Shown: positions 7,141 through 51,636 of the stretch, one piece after another | Numbering within the stretch: the stretch's first letter is position 1 | Layout: each line of letters begins with the position of its first letter | NCBI GenBank assembly: GCA_048264005.1 | Contig: JBLXDP010000014.1 | Span: 3,565-67,564 of the forward strand | Length of the DNA stretch: 64,000 bases | Source: Marinobacterium sp. | Lineage (GTDB): Bacteria > Pseudomonadota > Gammaproteobacteria > Pseudomonadales > Balneatricaceae | Reading direction: 5' to 3' | The notes under the pieces: model-generated | What the model was told of the DNA's origin: nothing | Databases searched by the model: none | Seen by the model: only the letters and a program-made list of their open reading frames with translations | Translations under genes and position numbers: made by a program

Positions 7141-7571
7141 AGGACATTAACTTGAAAGAGAGTACCTATTCGGGGTCCTGTTTATGTGGTGGCGTGAGGT
7201 TTTCAGTAACCGGTTTTAGCCCCAAAGCCGCTAACTGTCATTGTTCCATGTGCCGGAAATTTCACGGTGCAGCCTTCGGGACGCTTGTCGAAGTGGACGG
7301 TTTGCTTTGGCAATCTGGCAAGTCTCTTCTACAGGACTATGTTGCTCCGAACGGTACGACACGAACGTTCTGTAAAGCCTGTGGTTCGAGTATTGGCTTC
7401 AGGGTTAAGGGCGCTCCAATGGACGCTATGGAATTGGCGATTGCTACTTTTGATACTGTCATTCCAGTCACCATTGATGCGCAAATCTACACCCGCTACA
7501 AAGCAAACTGGTGCGCGCTCCAATCCGATATTCCAGCTTTTCAAGACGGGCGTGACGATCAGCATGGATGA
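7137..7571 (+). CDS. GFA (CENP-V) family Zn protein
   Basis: GSCLCG...CHCSMCRK...FCKACGS; TTG start overlaps the previous stop. Confidence 0.88.
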   Translation: MKDINLKESTYSGSCLCGGVRFSVTGFSPKAANCHCSMCRKFHGAAFGTLVEVDGLLWQSGKSLLQDYVAPNGTTRTFCKACGSSIGFRVKGAPMDAMELAIATFDTVIPVTIDAQIYTRYKANWCALQSDIPAFQDGRDDQHG

Positions 7572-14528: not shown

Positions 14529-15188
14529 TCAGGGCTTTGGCAGGTTTGTCATGTCGACCCTGAGCATGCAGCCAAACTCTTCAGGGAAATCCACGGATAC
14601 GCGGGCATGTACGGCACCCTGCTTATCAAAAAACCGTTGGGCACCGGAAATGGAGAACACGCCTTCGTGCCAGATATTAGGGTGGATGTAGAGACCCTGA
14701 GTACCGTCACACCAGAAGCAGACAAAGTGTTCGGGCTTAATGTCATCGCCGGGAAGGGCAACCGGTACCAGGAAGGGCTTACGTTGCTCAGGGAAGAACA
14801 GTTGGCCGCCATCAGGGTGATAGTTGGCGTGCCAGAGTAGCAGCTCCTGCGGCGGATTATTATGTCCGCGCTGTGCCTGTTCGGGGCGTTTTGAATAGCC
14901 CAGAATGTACTCGCCATCTACTGCGCTGTTGTTGCCAATCAGTACATCACCATCCCATTGAGACAGGAAGCTGCCTTCTTTCGTACCTCCCTCATTGCCA
15001 GTGTCCTCATCGATATGACGCCAGCCCTGCGCAGGCCAGCGAACAATTTCGATTTCCATCTCATCCGGGTGGTCAACAAGATAGCCGTAGGGTTTAACAG
15101 ACTCAGGCGTGGCCACAATGACGGGCACGTCATGCACGGGCAAATCGGCCGGTATGCTGGGGTTCATATAGTCAGGTGCAGGCTTCAT
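14529..15188 (-). CDS. Ureidoglycolate lyase/hydrolase-like cupin protein
   Basis: WHANYHPDGGQLFFP...GLYIHPNIWHEGVF; start placed at MKPAPDY. Confidence 0.7.
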   Translation of the reverse strand: MKPAPDYMNPSIPADLPVHDVPVIVATPESVKPYGYLVDHPDEMEIEIVRWPAQGWRHIDEDTGNEGGTKEGSFLSQWDGDVLIGNNSAVDGEYILGYSKRPEQAQRGHNNPPQELLLWHANYHPDGGQLFFPEQRKPFLVPVALPGDDIKPEHFVCFWCDGTQGLYIHPNIWHEGVFSISGAQRFFDKQGAVHARVSVDFPEEFGCMLRVDMTNLPKP

Positions 15189-15346
15189 GGGTACGACTCG
15201 GATGTAAAAGGTAAGGGATGCTAGGGCTTTGAGATGACATTCGGGTGACTGCAATATGACAGTTTGCATGTGCTGTAATCAATGTAATATGGAGCAGGTT
15301 GGTTGGCACGGTTTGCTGAACCTAAAGGCTGTTATTCGGGGGATAA

Positions 15347-15981: not shown

Positions 15982-17436
15982 ATGAGAACAGGGCGCCTAT
16001 ACTTTAGTGAGCGGATAAGCCGGTTCCTGTCTTCGGAGACCATTATGGTTTGGCGTACCCAGGCAAAAAATTTGTTGCTCTGGGGTGTGGGATATTTCCT
16101 GCTGGCAAAGCTCAGCATGCTGTTTTTTGCCACCCAGCCTGACAATATCGCCTTGCTTTGGCTTCCTGCGGGGCTTGGTCCCTATCTTTATTATCGTCGT
16201 GGTCCCTGGGTCTTACCTGCTGTTTTCATCGCCAGTTTTTGCGCCAATTTCCCGGGGCTGGAGCAGGATTCGACGCTAACACAGGCTCTTCACACCAGTG
16301 TCAGTGCGCTTGCCGATACACTGTTTGTCCTTTTGGCAGGCAATGTTGCGCGTCAATATATGTTGGGAGGGATTAATAGAACCGAGCAGTTATTCATACT
16401 GCTAACATTGGGGTGCCTGCTCCCGACCGCTATAACCGCCGCGCTTCTTTCTGCCAATCTCTGGTGGGGAGGGTATCTGGAATCTGGAATGACACTGGCG
16501 ATGGGGGTGTCGATCTGGCTTGCCGATTTGCTGGGTATCCTGCTGGTAATGCCACTACTGGTCGCATTTGAGCGTCGCCGGGAAGAGATGCAGGGCGTGT
16601 CTGTCAGCTGGTTTCTGGCCACGCTTTTTACGCTTGGATTCATGTTGGCGTCTTTCCATTACGGGCACTGGTTGCTGTACTTCTCGCTGCCAACGCTGAT
16701 GTATATCGTGTTTGGTTCCACCCCCTTGTACAGCTATGGTGCGCTGACAGCCACGATTCTTATCTATAATGCGCTGAATGTGCGCCTCTACCATCTAGAA
16801 GTGGTGGACCAGCGTTGGCTGGAGGCCCTGGCATTCTCTATCTCTGTTTCATTCAGCGTGATTGCGTTGAGTGTTCAGCAGCGTGTGCTGCGAAGAGAAG
16901 CTGTTCTGCGCAAGAAATGGGAAGTCAGAGCCAGCCATGATCACTTGACGGGGTTGGTAAACCGCGGTGTTCTGATGTCGCTACTGGCGCATGAAATCGA
17001 GCGTTTTCAAAGGTTTAGCGGCTCATTCAGTATTGCCATGTTGGATATTGATCACTTCAAGGCCGTGAATGATTCCTACGGACATGTTGTTGGAGATCAG
17101 GTGTTGGTTGAATTCAGCAAGCGCTTGAAAACACTCACTCGGGGGGCTGATGTGGTCGGCAGGATGGGGGGGGAAGAATTCCTGTTACTCTTGCCCGATA
17201 CTGATGCAGTCAGTGCCCATCATGTGCTGGACAATCTTAGAGCCAAAGCGGTAGCCGAGCCTTTTTGTGTTGGTGATGAGGAATTAAGGGTGACCTTCAG
17301 TGCGGGAATCGCAGGCTGCTTTCGCGGGGCAACACCTGAGTCTCTGCTTGAGGAGGCAGACCGTAACCTTTACTACGCAAAGCAGGCGGGCCGCAACCGG
17401 GTATCGGCTTCGGCCAGGCCTGCCTGCGAATCCTGA
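15982..17436 (+). CDS. MASE1-GGDEF diguanylate cyclase
   Basis: Multi-TM N-terminus; DHLTGL, DIDHFKAVNDSYGH, RGAD I-site, intact GGEEF; true start may be ATG 16045. Confidence 0.88.
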   Translation: MRTGRLYFSERISRFLSSETIMVWRTQAKNLLLWGVGYFLLAKLSMLFFATQPDNIALLWLPAGLGPYLYYRRGPWVLPAVFIASFCANFPGLEQDSTLTQALHTSVSALADTLFVLLAGNVARQYMLGGINRTEQLFILLTLGCLLPTAITAALLSANLWWGGYLESGMTLAMGVSIWLADLLGILLVMPLLVAFERRREEMQGVSVSWFLATLFTLGFMLASFHYGHWLLYFSLPTLMYIVFGSTPLYSYGALTATILIYNALNVRLYHLEVVDQRWLEALAFSISVSFSVIALSVQQRVLRREAVLRKKWEVRASHDHLTGLVNRGVLMSLLAHEIERFQRFSGSFSIAMLDIDHFKAVNDSYGHVVGDQVLVEFSKRLKTLTRGADVVGRMGGEEFLLLLPDTDAVSAHHVLDNLRAKAVAEPFCVGDEELRVTFSAGIAGCFRGATPESLLEEADRNLYYAKQAGRNRVSASARPACES

Positions 17437-46942: not shown

Positions 46943-47944
46943 ATGGCGCGCCGAATCGGAATCTTTGCCGGGGTGGTTTTACCCGTACTGGTGCTATCGG
47001 GTTGTAGCTCCCAAGCGCCCAAACCTGGTGCTCAAGACCAAATCATGCGGGGCACGTTGATTCAAGGGGATGGGAAGTACTGGTTTGAAAGCTGTGTTGG
47101 CATGGAACGAGAACCGGTTGTAGACCTGCCCAAGTCGCTGCAGCAGGCTCATAAGAGCCAGAGTTTGGGTGATGACTGGCCCGTGTACATAGAGGGTACG
47201 GGGCGCCGCGAAGCTGAGGGCGTTGTCTTGAGCCAAGGGCTGTTGGCAGGTGGTACCCAGCGCGCCTGCGGGTTTGGACTCTCCGGCATTGAGTTGCGCG
47301 CTGCATCTGCCGATGAACAAGTGGTGTTTGATCTAACAGAGGAATACCTGCGGGTAAGCTTCGTTGATCGGTTTTTAACGCTGTCTTTTGAACGACCTGA
47401 GGTTGAGCGCGAAGGCATGATACGACGCTGGCAGCAGGAAATGCAGGGCAGTGGTCAGAGCCGCCATTCGGTTGCGCTGGATGTTAAGCCCGGCAGCTGT
47501 AAAGGGCTGCGAGGGGAGTGGTATGGGCTGACTATGGAGGCGGAACTGAACGAGCGTTACTACTATGGTTGTGCACGTTTGGGTGATTTTGCCAACTGGC
47601 CTTTGCACCAGCGTTACCAGACCCCTGACAGTATACAGACGCGACGTATTGATTTGGCACTTGCCCCGGATGGCAAAGTGCAGTGGCGGGAAGATTACCG
47701 TAATGATCAGCCATTGCTCGAATCGGAAGGGGCTTGGCAGAAGGTGGCGCCGGGTCTGATTCAAGTGCAATTGGCGCCTGCTGAAGATTCGCTTCAGGAC
47801 GCTTCAACCTTGATGTTCAAAGTAACCGAGAACGGAGCGCTCCAACTCCAGGGGTTCCATCCCGCCTATGGTCGAAATCTGGAGTTTGAAGCTGCTGCCG
47901 GTCTGTTGCGGCTGGAGTCCGGCGATCTGGATTGGTGGCCTTAA
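46943..47944 (+). CDS. Multi-domain hypothetical lipoprotein
   Basis: Lipobox LSGC; Cys pairs; C-terminal segment resembles the NlpE N-domain. Confidence 0.7.
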   Translation: MARRIGIFAGVVLPVLVLSGCSSQAPKPGAQDQIMRGTLIQGDGKYWFESCVGMEREPVVDLPKSLQQAHKSQSLGDDWPVYIEGTGRREAEGVVLSQGLLAGGTQRACGFGLSGIELRAASADEQVVFDLTEEYLRVSFVDRFLTLSFERPEVEREGMIRRWQQEMQGSGQSRHSVALDVKPGSCKGLRGEWYGLTMEAELNERYYYGCARLGDFANWPLHQRYQTPDSIQTRRIDLALAPDGKVQWREDYRNDQPLLESEGAWQKVAPGLIQVQLAPAEDSLQDASTLMFKVTENGALQLQGFHPAYGRNLEFEAAAGLLRLESGDLDWWP

Positions 47945-48447
47945 CTATCCAGTAAGGTATCCCGTGCGGCATTTACCTGTGCCGCCAAATACGCACTGCC
48001 TTCCCGGTCTGGATGAATCTTCTGCATCAGTCGACGGTGGGCAGCAAGCACCTCTTCCCTGCTGGCATTGGGCAAGAGCCCCAGCACCTCAAGTGCCTCC
48101 TCACGACTCATGCTGTTTTTATGGCTCTGCTGTCGCCCTGAGTTCTGGTTAGAACCCTTTCCGCTATGTCGTTTTGCGGCTTGCTGTGACTGCCACCAGC
48201 GGGCAAGGCCCGGGACAAAGCGTAAGATCAGCGGCAAGAGCTGTTTGAGGAATGGGAGCGTCAGGGCAATCAGGGCGCCGAGCCAGTGCATGCGTCCAGT
48301 GATCGCCAGCGCGAGCAGACCGATCACCAGGAAAATCAGGATCAGCTTCCAGCTGGCACTTCGGCGCTGTTCAGGTGGCTGTTTCTGCCACCAGTACCAG
48401 CTGCCCAACACAAGTATTGCAAAAAGTACCAATCCCAGAGGGTGCAT
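47941..48447 (-). CDS. Membrane protein with C-terminal DnaJ-like J domain
   Basis: N-terminal TMs; MSREEALEVLGL...HRRLMQKIHPDREGS. Confidence 0.85.
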   Translation of the reverse strand: MHPLGLVLFAILVLGSWYWWQKQPPEQRRSASWKLILIFLVIGLLALAITGRMHWLGALIALTLPFLKQLLPLILRFVPGLARWWQSQQAAKRHSGKGSNQNSGRQQSHKNSMSREEALEVLGLLPNASREEVLAAHRRLMQKIHPDREGSAYLAAQVNAARDTLLDS

Positions 48448-48497
48448 GTTGTCTCCCGTTGCCGCGGTCCATTTGGGCTCAGGGGGCACCCTCGTAT

Positions 48498-50216
48498 TCA
48501 GCCATCCGTGCCGATATAGCGTTCCCGCTTACGGGGCTTCACTTTGTGGGTGTCCACCAGAACCAGTCCGTCGATACAGTAATTGAAGTCGGCATCGACA
48601 CCAAAGTCGAGGAATGAGACGCCACCATCCTCACAGAGTTCACTGTACTGCTTATAAAGGGTGGGTACTGTGACTCCCAGGAAGTCGAGCTGCTCGCGCA
48701 GGCGGCTGAAATCTTCGCGGTAGTCGTTGCCGGTAAAAATGGAATTTATCACGGCTTCGGCATCTGCATCGAGTTGATAGGGGCTGAATGATCGAGCCAG
48801 TGCCTTGGGGTCCGGGAAATAATGGCGGTAGAACCAAACCAGCAGATCACGGGCGCGTTTGGGGTAGCTATGGCTCAGGCTCACTGGCCCAAACATGTAG
48901 CGAACTTCCGGGTGACGGCGCAGGTAGGCCCCGATGCCGTACCAAAGATAATCCAATGAGCGCTTGCCCCAGTAGCGGGGCTGGACAAAGCTGCGACCCA
49001 GTTCAATGCCTTCGGCAAACACCTGCTGCATGTTGTCGCTGTAGCTGAACAGGGACTCACTGTAGAGCGGTTGCTCAGGGTTTTGTGTACGTTCTTTCCC
49101 TTCGCCGATACGGTAGGCGCCGGCGATCTCAAGATCTTCCTCATCCCAGAGGATCAGATGGCGGTAATACTGGTCGTAGCGATCCAGATCGCGTTTCTCG
49201 CCGGTGCCTTCTCCAACGGTACGGAAAGCAACTTCACGCAGGCGGCCTATTTCGCGCATGACGGCAGAGTCAGGCTGGTAGTTAAACAGATAGATCTTTT
49301 TGCCATCCGTGGTCTCGCCCAATAGCTCTGCCTGCTTGAGCTCCTGTTTAAGAGCCTTGCGGTCTTGGGGGTGGGCGATGGTCTTTTCGGTAATGAAGAG
49401 TGGCTGTTTGTTGCGGGCAATACGGTACAGATGCTTCTTGAGCAACTTGGCCTTGTCGCGGTTGGATACAGGCAGGGCATCCAGCTGGCTAAAGGCGATG
49501 GTCTCACCCACTCGCACGGGCAGGGTAACCGAATGCTTGTTGAACATTTCCCGTGCCAGCATCAGGGTGGACGCTGACTTGTTCAGATAGGACAGCCCGT
49601 AAAACAGGGGAGAGTTACGACCGCCTAGGTAGACCGGCAATATGGGAGCATTAGCCTTGCGGGCAAAGTGAAGGAAGCCGCTGTTCCATTTGCCATCACG
49701 GATACCGGTCAAGCCTGCACGGGACACTTCGCCCGCCGGAAAAACGACGACTGCTTCATCGTTTTGCAGAGCATCTACGATACGTGCGATGTTCTGTTTA
49801 CGCGTGCTTTTGCCGAGGTTGTCGACCGGAAGAAACAGGTTCTGCAGGGCGTCAAAGTTCATCAGCAGATCATTGGCCACAATGCGAACGTCGCGACGCA
49901 CTTCGCCCACCAGTTTCAGCAGTGCCAGGCCATCCAGTGCACCCAGCGGGTGGTTAGCGATGATCACCACGCGGCCACTGGACGGAATATTCATCTGTTC
50001 CTTGTGGCTGAGGGCATAGCTGAAATTGAAGTAGTCCAGTACGGCATCGATAAACTCAAACCCCTGAATGCCCTGATGGGTATCCAGAAAACGGTTGATT
50101 TCATCTTCGCGGATCAGTCGACGAAGGCAAAAGAGAGTCGAGCGTTTAACCGGGGAGGGTTTTTGTGCAAAAGCGGGATATTTGTTGACCAGTACCTGTT
50201 CTACATTGATCTGCAT
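48498..50216 (-). CDS. olsF: Bifunctional acyltransferase (PlsC-like + GNAT), OlsF-type aminolipid synthase
   Basis: NHPLGALDG (HX4D), FPAGEVS; C-terminal LREVAFR..GEG..RDLDRYD, ELGRSFV. Confidence 0.75.
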   Translation of the reverse strand: MQINVEQVLVNKYPAFAQKPSPVKRSTLFCLRRLIREDEINRFLDTHQGIQGFEFIDAVLDYFNFSYALSHKEQMNIPSSGRVVIIANHPLGALDGLALLKLVGEVRRDVRIVANDLLMNFDALQNLFLPVDNLGKSTRKQNIARIVDALQNDEAVVVFPAGEVSRAGLTGIRDGKWNSGFLHFARKANAPILPVYLGGRNSPLFYGLSYLNKSASTLMLAREMFNKHSVTLPVRVGETIAFSQLDALPVSNRDKAKLLKKHLYRIARNKQPLFITEKTIAHPQDRKALKQELKQAELLGETTDGKKIYLFNYQPDSAVMREIGRLREVAFRTVGEGTGEKRDLDRYDQYYRHLILWDEEDLEIAGAYRIGEGKERTQNPEQPLYSESLFSYSDNMQQVFAEGIELGRSFVQPRYWGKRSLDYLWYGIGAYLRRHPEVRYMFGPVSLSHSYPKRARDLLVWFYRHYFPDPKALARSFSPYQLDADAEAVINSIFTGNDYREDFSRLREQLDFLGVTVPTLYKQYSELCEDGGVSFLDFGVDADFNYCIDGLVLVDTHKVKPRKRERYIGTDG

Positions 50217-50306
50217 GTTCAGTCACCTCTTTCACGTGCCGCTTTACACTATGGCGAACAGGTGACATTGAGGTGACTGGCAGATGACTGCTCCGTGACA
50301 ACTGGA

Positions 50307-50483
50307 TTAACTGTCTCTGTTTTTCATCCAGGGATCTTGCTCATCCTTGCGCCGACCACGGCTCTGTCTCCGATCCGATTTGCCGGGCTCGAAGCGGATA
50401 TCTTCGCGGCGGTCGGGCGTTTTGCGTCTGTCCTGGTTTTTTCGACGTTCGCGCCCTGTCCATTCTTGTTGTTCTTCTGACAT
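50307..50483 (-). CDS. 58-aa Arg-rich microprotein with WxGxERR and repeated DRR motifs (not in the ORF track)
   Basis: Hand translation MSEEQQEWTGRERRKNQDRRKTPDRREDIRFEPGKSDRRQSRGRRKDEQDPWMKNRDS; AGGAG RBS 8 nt upstream; fills the olsF-dinB gap. Confidence 0.8.
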   Translation of the reverse strand: MSEEQQEWTGRERRKNQDRRKTPDRREDIRFEPGKSDRRQSRGRRKDEQDPWMKNRDS

Positions 50484-50544
50484 TGGCTTGCTCCTGCGCG
50501 TGATTCATGCGTGAATAGCGTGCTCTGAAGTACAGTGTAAACCA

Positions 50545-51636
50545 ATGAATTCGAATGACCCTGCTTTGACAGCACCTTCCTTGCGCAAAATCATCCATCT
50601 GGATTGCGATTGTTTCTTTGCCGCCGTCGAGATGCTGGAGCACCCTGAATGGCGTGATATTCCACTGGCAGTCGGCGGTGCAGCCAGTCGCAGGGGCGTA
50701 ATTTCGACCTGCAATTATCCGGCTCGTGAGTTTGGCATTCATTCGGCCATGCCCAGCGCCCGAGCGATACAGCTTTGCCCGCAACTGAAGCTGGTATCCG
50801 GCAATATGGCCCGTTACCGTGAGGTGGCCGATCAGATTTTTGCCATTTACCGCCGCTTCAGCCCATTGATTGAGCCGGTGTCCATCGACGAAGCCTACCT
50901 GGATGTAACCGACAGTTCGGTCAAAGGGGGAAGTGCGACCCGTATTGCCGAGGAAATCCGTGCCCAGGTTAAGGCTGAAACCGGAATTACCGTCTCGGCG
51001 GGCGTGGCGCAGAACAAATTTCTGGCCAAAGTTGCCAGTGACTGGAACAAGCCTGATGGGCTTTGTGTAATAGCACCATCCGAACAAGCCGAGTTTGTCG
51101 CTCAGCTGCCGGTGAAAAAAATACCGGGTGTTGGCCCGCGTACTCAGGAAAAGCTGATGGGGCTCGGTGTCGGGACCTGTTCAGAGCTGCAATCACTGTC
51201 GTTGATCGAACTGAAAAACCACTTCGGCAAGTTCGGTGAACGCCTCTGGCAGTTGGCGCGCGGTGAAGATGAGCGAGAGGTCAGAACCCATCGTGAGCGC
51301 AAATCTGTCAGCGTTGAACACACCTTTAGCCAGGATCTGCCCGATCTTCAGACCTGTCTGGATCAGCTGGATACGTTGATGGAGGATCTGGAGCGCCGTT
51401 ACGAGCGCCATCGAGACTCACGTCAGATTCTGGGTGCCGTCGTGAAATTGAAGTTCAATGATTTTACCCAGACAACGGCAGAGTGCCGTATTGAGGGGCC
51501 TCAGAAAGCGACTTTCGCGTCTTTGTTGGAAGAAGCCTGGATGCGCAAGCGCAGTGCGGTGCGTTTGGTCGGCCTGGGGTATCGCCTGGGAGCTAAAGAG
51601 AATGCAGCGGAAACCGAGCAGCTTCCGCTGTTTTGA
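50545..51636 (+). CDS. dinB: DNA polymerase IV
   Basis: IIHLDCDCFFAAVE, STCNYPAR, SIDEAYLD, KVASDWNKPDG. Confidence 0.96.
   Translation: MNSNDPALTAPSLRKIIHLDCDCFFAAVEMLEHPEWRDIPLAVGGAASRRGVISTCNYPAREFGIHSAMPSARAIQLCPQLKLVSGNMARYREVADQIFAIYRRFSPLIEPVSIDEAYLDVTDSSVKGGSATRIAEEIRAQVKAETGITVSAGVAQNKFLAKVASDWNKPDGLCVIAPSEQAEFVAQLPVKKIPGVGPRTQEKLMGLGVGTCSELQSLSLIELKNHFGKFGERLWQLARGEDEREVRTHRERKSVSVEHTFSQDLPDLQTCLDQLDTLMEDLERRYERHRDSRQILGAVVKLKFNDFTQTTAECRIEGPQKATFASLLEEAWMRKRSAVRLVGLGYRLGAKENAAETEQLPLF

Follow-up and report, generated by a model that had tools for sequence, protein, structure and literature searches.

Effectors of c-di-GMP are hard to predict. Those of the Cle ARR/CSP class bind a c-di-GMP dimer in a 2:1 ratio, with affinities in the nM-uM range, and the CSP has been used as an engineered c-di-GMP sponge against biofilms. 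[quoted passage not shown] The Cle ARR is a tandem [Y/F]xGP[D/E][R/K]R motif described in 302 proteins, nearly all of which are alphaproteobacterial and CheY-like (PMC5677366). In the NMR structure of the CleD-derived peptide CSP1, an intercalated c-di-GMP dimer is held by the contact motif DRR-x11-[R/K]RxxD together with a pair of stacking tyrosines. Without its ligand CSP1 is unfolded, and it folds upon binding; residues Y163 and G165 of CleD were critical in an alanine scan (PMC7382256).

The window analysed here, i.e. the whole stretch of 64,000 nt from Marinobacterium sp., contains a short minus-strand ORF which a preliminary description had proposed as a stand-alone c-di-GMP binder, similar to the arginine-rich region of the Cle proteins and possibly co-transcribed with a downstream olsF-like gene. 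The features of the locus are the following:

48498..50216, minus strand: olsF, encoding a bifunctional ornithine lipid synthase (878 bits with NF052615, whose cut-off is 620)
50253-50248, minus strand: -10-like element CATAGT of the olsF promoter, 3' of the Pho-box array
50262..50301, minus strand: four Pho-box heptamers with an 11-bp period, the PhoB-type promoter of olsF, in the 90-nt spacer
50307..50483, minus strand: CDS of the 58-aa Arg/Asp-rich microprotein, stop codon included (from its translation, orthologues, dN/dS and family membership)
50491..50495, minus strand: Shine-Dalgarno sequence AGGAG of the small gene, 7 nt ahead of the ATG
50514..50541, minus strand: putative sigma-70-type promoter of the small gene, TTTACA-N16-GCTATT, read by eye
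50545..51636, plus strand: dinB, DNA polymerase IV, the divergent upstream neighbour (NF002677, 491 bits)

On re-reading, the ORF 50483..50307 (minus strand), its 58-aa translation and its AGGAG ribosome binding site (RBS) agreed exactly with the preliminary description, whose motif count (one WxGxERR, three DRR, one GRR) was also correct, and the downstream gene at 50216..48498 that it had called olsF-like scored as a bona fide OlsF. Further neighbours at the locus are hopJ and feoB. In the same region of the window, the plus-strand ORF at 46943-47944 (333 aa) has no Pfam or NCBIfam match, and the 182-aa protein at 47941-48489 (minus strand), whose place immediately downstream of olsF is conserved within the genus, shows only a C-terminal J-domain. 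The translation of the small ORF is MSEEQQEWTGRERRKNQDRRKTPDRREDIRFEPGKSDRRQSRGRRKDEQDPWMKNRDS*. It is polyampholytic and net basic, with 14 Arg, 5 Lys, 7 Asp and 7 Glu and a net charge of +5. The motif W8-T-G-R-E-R-R is followed by DRR at residues 18-20, 24-26 and 37-39 and by GRR at 43-45; the RR pairs start at residues 13, 19, 25, 38 and 44, and the core is I29-R30-F31-E32.

An ORF that is so short, under the usual gene-calling cut-offs, and that several congeners do not have could be a chance open frame between dinB and olsF. We searched for the 58-aa frame in all six frames of 60 relatives and found it open and stop-free in 15 genomes of the bacterial family, all 15 orthologues having an ATG start and a GGAG-type RBS at the same distance. 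The median dN/dS between orthologues (pairwise Nei-Gojobori) was 0.20, with values of 0.06-0.17 for close pairs, and the column entropy at codon positions 1, 2 and 3 was 0.66, 0.51 and 1.36, i.e. the third positions are the most variable; conservation and synonymous-biased divergence, which the preliminary description had indicated as a check, are therefore both present. Because frame, ATG and RBS are kept in the 15 orthologues, with such a dN/dS and such a variation at third positions, the ORF 50483..50307 (minus strand) is, on these comparisons, a genuine gene under purifying selection at the protein level. With hundreds of relatives besides, the probability of a chance frame is close to nil and this explanation is effectively refuted. 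We likewise rejected the possibility that the region encodes an sRNA or a riboswitch and not a protein: a search of the region with Rfam gave no family, the sole match being a sub-threshold chance match to a miRNA, and the codon-position signal is clear.

The small gene probably has its own promoter besides its own RBS. The putative element TTTACA-N16-GCTATT shows TATATT in some congeners, and it was not picked up by a consensus promoter scan. On the opposite strand, the annotated ATG of dinB (50545-50585, plus strand) is not preceded by an obvious RBS, and the alignment with distant orthologues begins only at residue 14; the true start of dinB may lie downstream, which would leave more room for a divergent promoter of the small gene.

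Searches of Pfam, NCBIfam, PHROG, PADLOC and PDB sequences with the 58-aa protein and its family gave no match, and we hence rejected homology to a curated family, a phage protein, a defence protein or a solved structure. The statement that the motif occurs with no other domain therefore stands: the protein is a stand-alone microprotein without any Pfam or NCBIfam domain. A family profile, built from ten close homologues and run against 1.84 billion representatives with E<=1e-3, retrieved 234 clusters; the best 150 of these 234 were all 51-160 aa in length, and the longer members among them carried the DRR module at the C-terminus. No fusion of the module to a signalling domain (REC included) was present among the family members examined. 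The family occurred in 49 of 400 evenly sampled Gammaproteobacteria genomes (~12%), belonging to 39 of 321 genera, with at most 4 copies per genome, and its named hosts include Marinobacterium, Neptuniibacter, Amphritea, Motiliproteus, Porticoccus/SAR92, Cycloclasticus and several Lysobacteraceae. Judged from these searches, it is a large, undescribed and uncurated family of stand-alone microproteins in the Gammaproteobacteria.

Conservation was computed for 210 unique members, anchored on the core aromatic residue. The residues R19, R20, R25, R26 and R30 were conserved at 99-100% and R38, R39, R44 and R45 at 93-96%, while the acidic residues ahead of or behind the RR pairs ranged from D24 (91%) to D37 (78%) and D48 (60%). 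F31 was found in 91% of the members, with W or Y in the others, and E32 in 88%; the best-conserved stretch was I29-R30-F31-E32 (72-100%). D or E also precedes the RR pairs at positions 12 and 18, and the flanking conserved aromatics are W/Y8, F31 and W52. The spacing of the RR pairs was (6,6,13,6) or (5,6,13,6) in 143 of 218 family members, the median net charge +6 and the Arg content ~22%. The 58-aa protein shows all the traits by which we defined the family, i.e. the 6(5)-6-13-6 spacing, the (I/V)RFE core and a stand-alone length of 50-70 aa.

Some members differ in copy number or architecture. One genome has two diverged paralogues 3.2 kb apart (L212:3992-4159 and 7385-7552). Members of ~90 aa (L225, L226, L228, L231, L234) start with an acidic N-terminal head, (L)SIMSDEELEAxL, which by eye is like the N-terminal CheY-binding motif LSQxEIDxLL of FliM, so that they may consist of a CheY-docking peptide plus a DRR module. 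The longer members L108:789-1220, L224, L015, P0108, P0112, P0114, P0127, P0142 and P0144 combine an N-terminal TM helix, an uncharacterised Cys-rich domain (…CC…LPLxxCxxxxCxCxY) and a C-terminal DRR tail, and none of them has a Pfam match.

The AlphaFold2 model, obtained with a 59-sequence alignment, was almost all coil (pLDDT 73.6, pTM 0.29) and gave no fold match in Foldseek; the 58-aa protein is predicted to be unfolded on its own. This coil of the apo model is compatible with folding on binding, and it is not diagnostic of it. As for CSP1, we are hence dealing with a short, Arg/Asp-rich peptide whose apo form is unfolded, in our case by prediction. The two also share the aromatic-x-G-x-(D/E)-R-R unit (as an exact YxGPERR in many family members), an identical DRR-x11-RR spacing, an [RK]RxxD-like element and a net charge of about +5. 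Precisely, the half-motif [YF]xGP[DE][RK]R was found in exact form in 62 of 218 members (e.g. YRGPERR) and in relaxed form in 130 of 218, the spacing of D24RR-x11-R38R39 is that of D154RR-x11-K168R169 in CleD, and R44R45xxD48 represents the [RK]RxxD element, with its D in 60% of the family.

However, the Cle ARR forms the tail of a REC-domain protein, whereas the 58-aa protein is free-standing and is no C-terminal extension of a CheY-like receiver domain; the CSP has two RR pairs and the 58-aa protein five; W and R take the places of the Y/F and P of Cle in the first motif of the 58-aa protein; the aromatic and the Gly between the Arg pairs are shifted in register with respect to Y163 and G165 of CleD; the new family has in addition the invariant (I/V)RFE core, outside the CSP binding chemistry; and it belongs to the Gammaproteobacteria, the Cle ARR to the Alphaproteobacteria. 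The literal CSP motif DRR-x11-[RK]RxxD is missing in the 58-aa protein (position +3 is R42, and G or K elsewhere in the family); it was present in 3 of 218 members, and in 10 of 218 when D/E was relaxed. The tandem Cle motif was present in 0 of 218, the 58-aa protein having one relaxed half, W-T-G-R-E-R-R. The alignment of the family with CSP1 (CleD 140-174) by hhalign had a probability of 0.35%, and a profile run against the sequences of all PDB chains had no match at E<=10. Because of the rarity of the literal CSP motif, the missing tandem, the shifted register and the hhalign probability, we do not place the family within the Cle ARR family, of which it would be at most an analogue. The resemblance seen in the preliminary description thus holds in part: the (D/E)RR grammar is shared, and the YxGPERR halves and the DRR-x11-RR spacing of the family add to it, but the CSP and tandem motifs are absent from the 58-aa protein and nearly so from the family, and there is no profile similarity.

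Other arginine motifs can be compared as well. In the RxxD I-site of GGDEF domains and in the RxxxR motif of PilZ, paired Arg and Asp act as guanine readers, and R25-R26-E-D28 and R44-R45-x-x-D48 of the 58-aa protein can be read as RxxD; unlike it, those sites are made of discontinuous segments of folded domains. Arginine-rich RNA-binding peptides (lambda N, Tat-type ARMs) and small basic ribosome-associated stress proteins are also small, basic, disordered and with many Arg; however, they have neither a regular acidic residue before their Arg pairs nor a fixed hexad spacing, and no sequence relation of the 58-aa protein to them was found.

The adjacent olsF has a clear PhoB-type promoter of its own. 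The array in the spacer (TTGTCAC ggag CAGTCAT ctgc CAGTCAC ctca ATGTCAC) had the top four-heptamer score, 24/28, among the 8.3 million positions of the 4.13-Mb genome, and it is conserved in the bacterial family, genomes without the small ORF included, always equally far from the start codon of olsF. The Pho box was validated against the promoters of the genome's own pstS, pstC and phoB, where the same type of box lies 54-57 nt ahead of the gene start; a simple two-heptamer score did not, by itself, single out the canonical pho genes genome-wide. In this bacterial family olsF carries one of the clearest Pho-box arrays of the genome, consistent with a control of ornithine lipid synthesis by phosphate starvation, as for Vibrio cholerae, in which the OlsF-made ornithine lipid is PhoB-dependent (PMC12186959). 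Elsewhere in the window, three Pho-box-like heptamers (CTGTCAT attg CAGTCAC ccga ATGTCAT; 15229-15262, minus strand) sit 56 nt ahead of the ORF 15188..14529 (minus strand, 219 aa), which encodes a cupin/ureidoglycolate-lyase-like protein (PF04115, 1.5e-10) and may be a member of the Pho regulon.

The small ORF is located directly upstream of olsF in all the Marinobacterium, Neptuniibacter and Amphritea loci holding both genes; in L010, L011 and related loci its upstream neighbour is hopJ instead of dinB, with the adjacency to olsF unchanged. In 7 of 16 congeners olsF and its Pho promoter are present without an intact small gene. The small ORF is cleanly excised with the RBS still there in L025, unrelated sequence takes its place in L026, L027 and L029, and L035 and L036 have lost the ORF together with its leader, with dinB nearer to olsF. 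In a further Marinobacterium congener (L034:1230-1396) the RBS, the ATG and the first motif, WNGRERR, are kept and the remaining frame is scrambled; this copy looks like a frameshifted, decaying one. Presence and absence of the small gene are scattered on the OlsF tree, with at least 3 changes forced by well-supported branches and about 9 on the ML tree. By this distribution the small gene is dispensable and has been repeatedly lost within the genus.

We also scanned the 160 nt upstream of the small gene for a Pho box, and the best pair scored at most 11/14 in 125 of 125 loci, the olsF promoters scoring 12-13; with no upstream Pho box in any lineage, membership of the small gene in the Pho regulon was rejected. 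Since olsF has its own Pho promoter, and this is retained in the congeners that lost the small gene, we conclude from the compared loci that the pairing is inherited synteny and not a functional unit, the small gene being neither co-regulated by PhoB nor needed for olsF. As to the suggested co-transcription, no intrinsic terminator was found between the small gene and olsF, so that read-through from one into the other is possible, but olsF has a conserved Pho-box promoter of its own, which persists without the small gene.

The arrangement recalls that of attenuator leader peptides, i.e. short ORFs rich in one amino acid and directly upstream of a gene for a related metabolite. A cis-acting uORF or leader peptide would here sense the arginine or ornithine supply through its 14 Arg codons and tune the transcription or translation of olsF; in fact, the ORF is Arg-rich, on the same strand and directly upstream of olsF with no terminator between, ornithine is consumed by OlsF, and the adjacency persists in the three genera despite the changed upstream neighbour. 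However, purifying selection acts on the amino-acid sequence beyond its Arg content, and the small gene encodes a conserved, widespread protein, whose family in most lineages occurs in unrelated settings away from olsF, as in Porticoccaceae, Lysobacteraceae and dozens of further families. The spacer holds a Pho-box promoter with no terminator/antiterminator and no Rfam match, and this promoter is kept in six congeners with the ORF deleted and in a seventh with the ORF degenerate. Neither an obligatory linkage to olsF nor a regulatory RNA structure in the spacer was thus found, and we rejected leader-peptide control of olsF as very improbable on account of the protein-level selection, the occurrence without olsF, the Pho promoter and the loss of the ORF with the promoter kept.

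Over ~170 loci the neighbours of the family vary by lineage: olsF and dinB in the Marinobacterium/Neptuniibacter/Amphritea group, and CorA, HemN-like, S9 peptidase, CstA, DUF819 and HlyIII genes in the Lysobacteraceae. In Porticoccaceae/SAR92 (L067-L083, L091, L094 and others) the family gene lies ~85 nt after a plsC-like lysophospholipid acyltransferase gene and is convergent with gyrB; this second lineage with a lipid acyltransferase as neighbour is probably a coincidence. The 74 immediate neighbours of 40 class-sampled loci contained 102 Pfam families, none of them more than 4 times, and neither a recurrent partner gene nor an enrichment of GGDEF, EAL or PilZ was found by neighbour clustering and Pfam tallies over the ~170 loci. 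A GGDEF gene was present within +-4 kb in 2 of 40 loci (285 kb), which is about the background rate because the hosts carry many of these genes: all 13 host genomes tested encode GGDEF proteins, with 7-80 genes each. The genome studied here, with ~76 GGDEF matches in 4.13 Mb, is very rich in c-di-GMP genes, and one MASE1-GGDEF diguanylate cyclase gene lies in the window itself (15982-17436, plus strand).

Some loci show operon-like links to c-di-GMP. In Cognatiluteimonas/Lysobacter (L093, 5974-7353; L100, L103, L169) the DRR gene precedes, on one strand and with a gap of 10-15 nt, a gene for a multi-pass membrane GGDEF (GGEEF) cyclase. In L218:3980-6249 a gene for a REC-domain protein comes after the DRR gene in the same orientation and, 10 nt on, one for a PAS-GGDEF cyclase. 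In two genomes of one low-GC genus (L235:2556-4512 and L241:2573-4518) flgN, a ycgR-like gene (PilZN+PilZ) and two tandem DRR genes follow each other on one strand, i.e. in a flagellar, c-di-GMP-linked setting. These three links are anecdotal and represent leads with no statistical support.

We tentatively consider the 58-aa protein as a binder of a guanine nucleotide, with c-di-GMP as prime candidate, which would fold on binding, and by analogy with the systems above we give this reading a probability of about one in three. The unfolded protein would undergo ligand-induced folding around the guanine-based nucleotide, whose guanine edges would be read by the Asp-Arg-Arg triads, with Asp on N1/N2, Arg on the Hoogsteen face and cation-pi stacking, while the conserved aromatics would cap the stack as in CSP1. 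In an organism with ~76 GGDEF genes it could then serve as a minimal receptor, as a buffer or as an adaptor. The heterogeneous genomic context, the lack of fusions to signalling domains among the members and the missing literal CSP motif argue against a role in c-di-GMP signalling, and the frequent loss of the small gene argues against a central role.

The same composition could belong to a generic disordered basic peptide that binds polyanions, for instance an RNA chaperone induced under stress, a ribosome-associated factor or a nucleoid protein, in which 14 Arg would contact RNA, ribosome, DNA or polyphosphate by electrostatics, with no second-messenger specificity. The net basic charge and high Arg content of the protein and of its family, the predicted unfolded state, the occurrence as a monocistronic stand-alone gene in many unrelated settings, as is usual for small stress proteins, its dispensability and the absence of c-di-GMP gene enrichment nearby would all be in line with it. 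However, classical Arg-rich nucleic-acid-binding peptides do not have a near-invariant acidic residue before every RR, as here with D24 and D37, and it is because of this Asp, which would be counterproductive in a polyanion binder, that we favour a guanine reader. The strict spacing and the invariant (I/V)RFE core point, moreover, to a specific folded complex and not to diffuse electrostatics, and genes for translation or the ribosome do not recur as neighbours; we regard generic polyanion binding as slightly less probable than the binding of a guanine nucleotide.

The (I/V)RFE core is also what a protein-binding adaptor or regulator would call for. In this case DRR-(E/D)-(I/V)-R-F-E-(P) would be a short linear docking motif for a conserved cellular protein, e.g. 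a protease, a polymerase or a motor component, with no small-molecule ligand. The best-conserved stretch of the family indeed falls outside the CSP binding chemistry, and the module behaves as docking tails do, being a C-terminal tail on unrelated N-termini (TM plus Cys-rich domain, acidic 'IMSDEELEAxL' heads, 50-aa WxW domains). Against this, no recurrent neighbour gene hints at a partner, and five regularly spaced RR pairs exceed the needs of one docking motif, so that an adaptor of this kind appears unlikely.

To return to guanine-nucleotide binding, the family could represent a natural c-di-GMP sponge or mini-receptor, present as free ~58-aa proteins in about one eighth of the gammaproteobacterial genomes, a proposal based on analogy that we regard as possible but on balance doubtful. 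The five Asp-Arg-Arg units would wrap one or two intercalated c-di-GMP dimers, and free c-di-GMP would be either buffered or handed to partners via the invariant (I/V)RFE core. If this is true, the family would represent a new class of second-messenger effectors without any domain, akin to the Cle ARR in chemistry and not in ancestry.

If the family binds c-di-GMP or another guanine nucleotide, it would represent a new effector class that was missed by both gene callers and curated libraries. It would then account in part for the "missing receptor" problem where an organism has dozens of cyclases, as the present one with its 76 GGDEF matches, and provide short natural scaffolds for c-di-GMP sensors and sequestration tools. 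Even with another ligand, this is a large and conserved microprotein family devoid of annotation.
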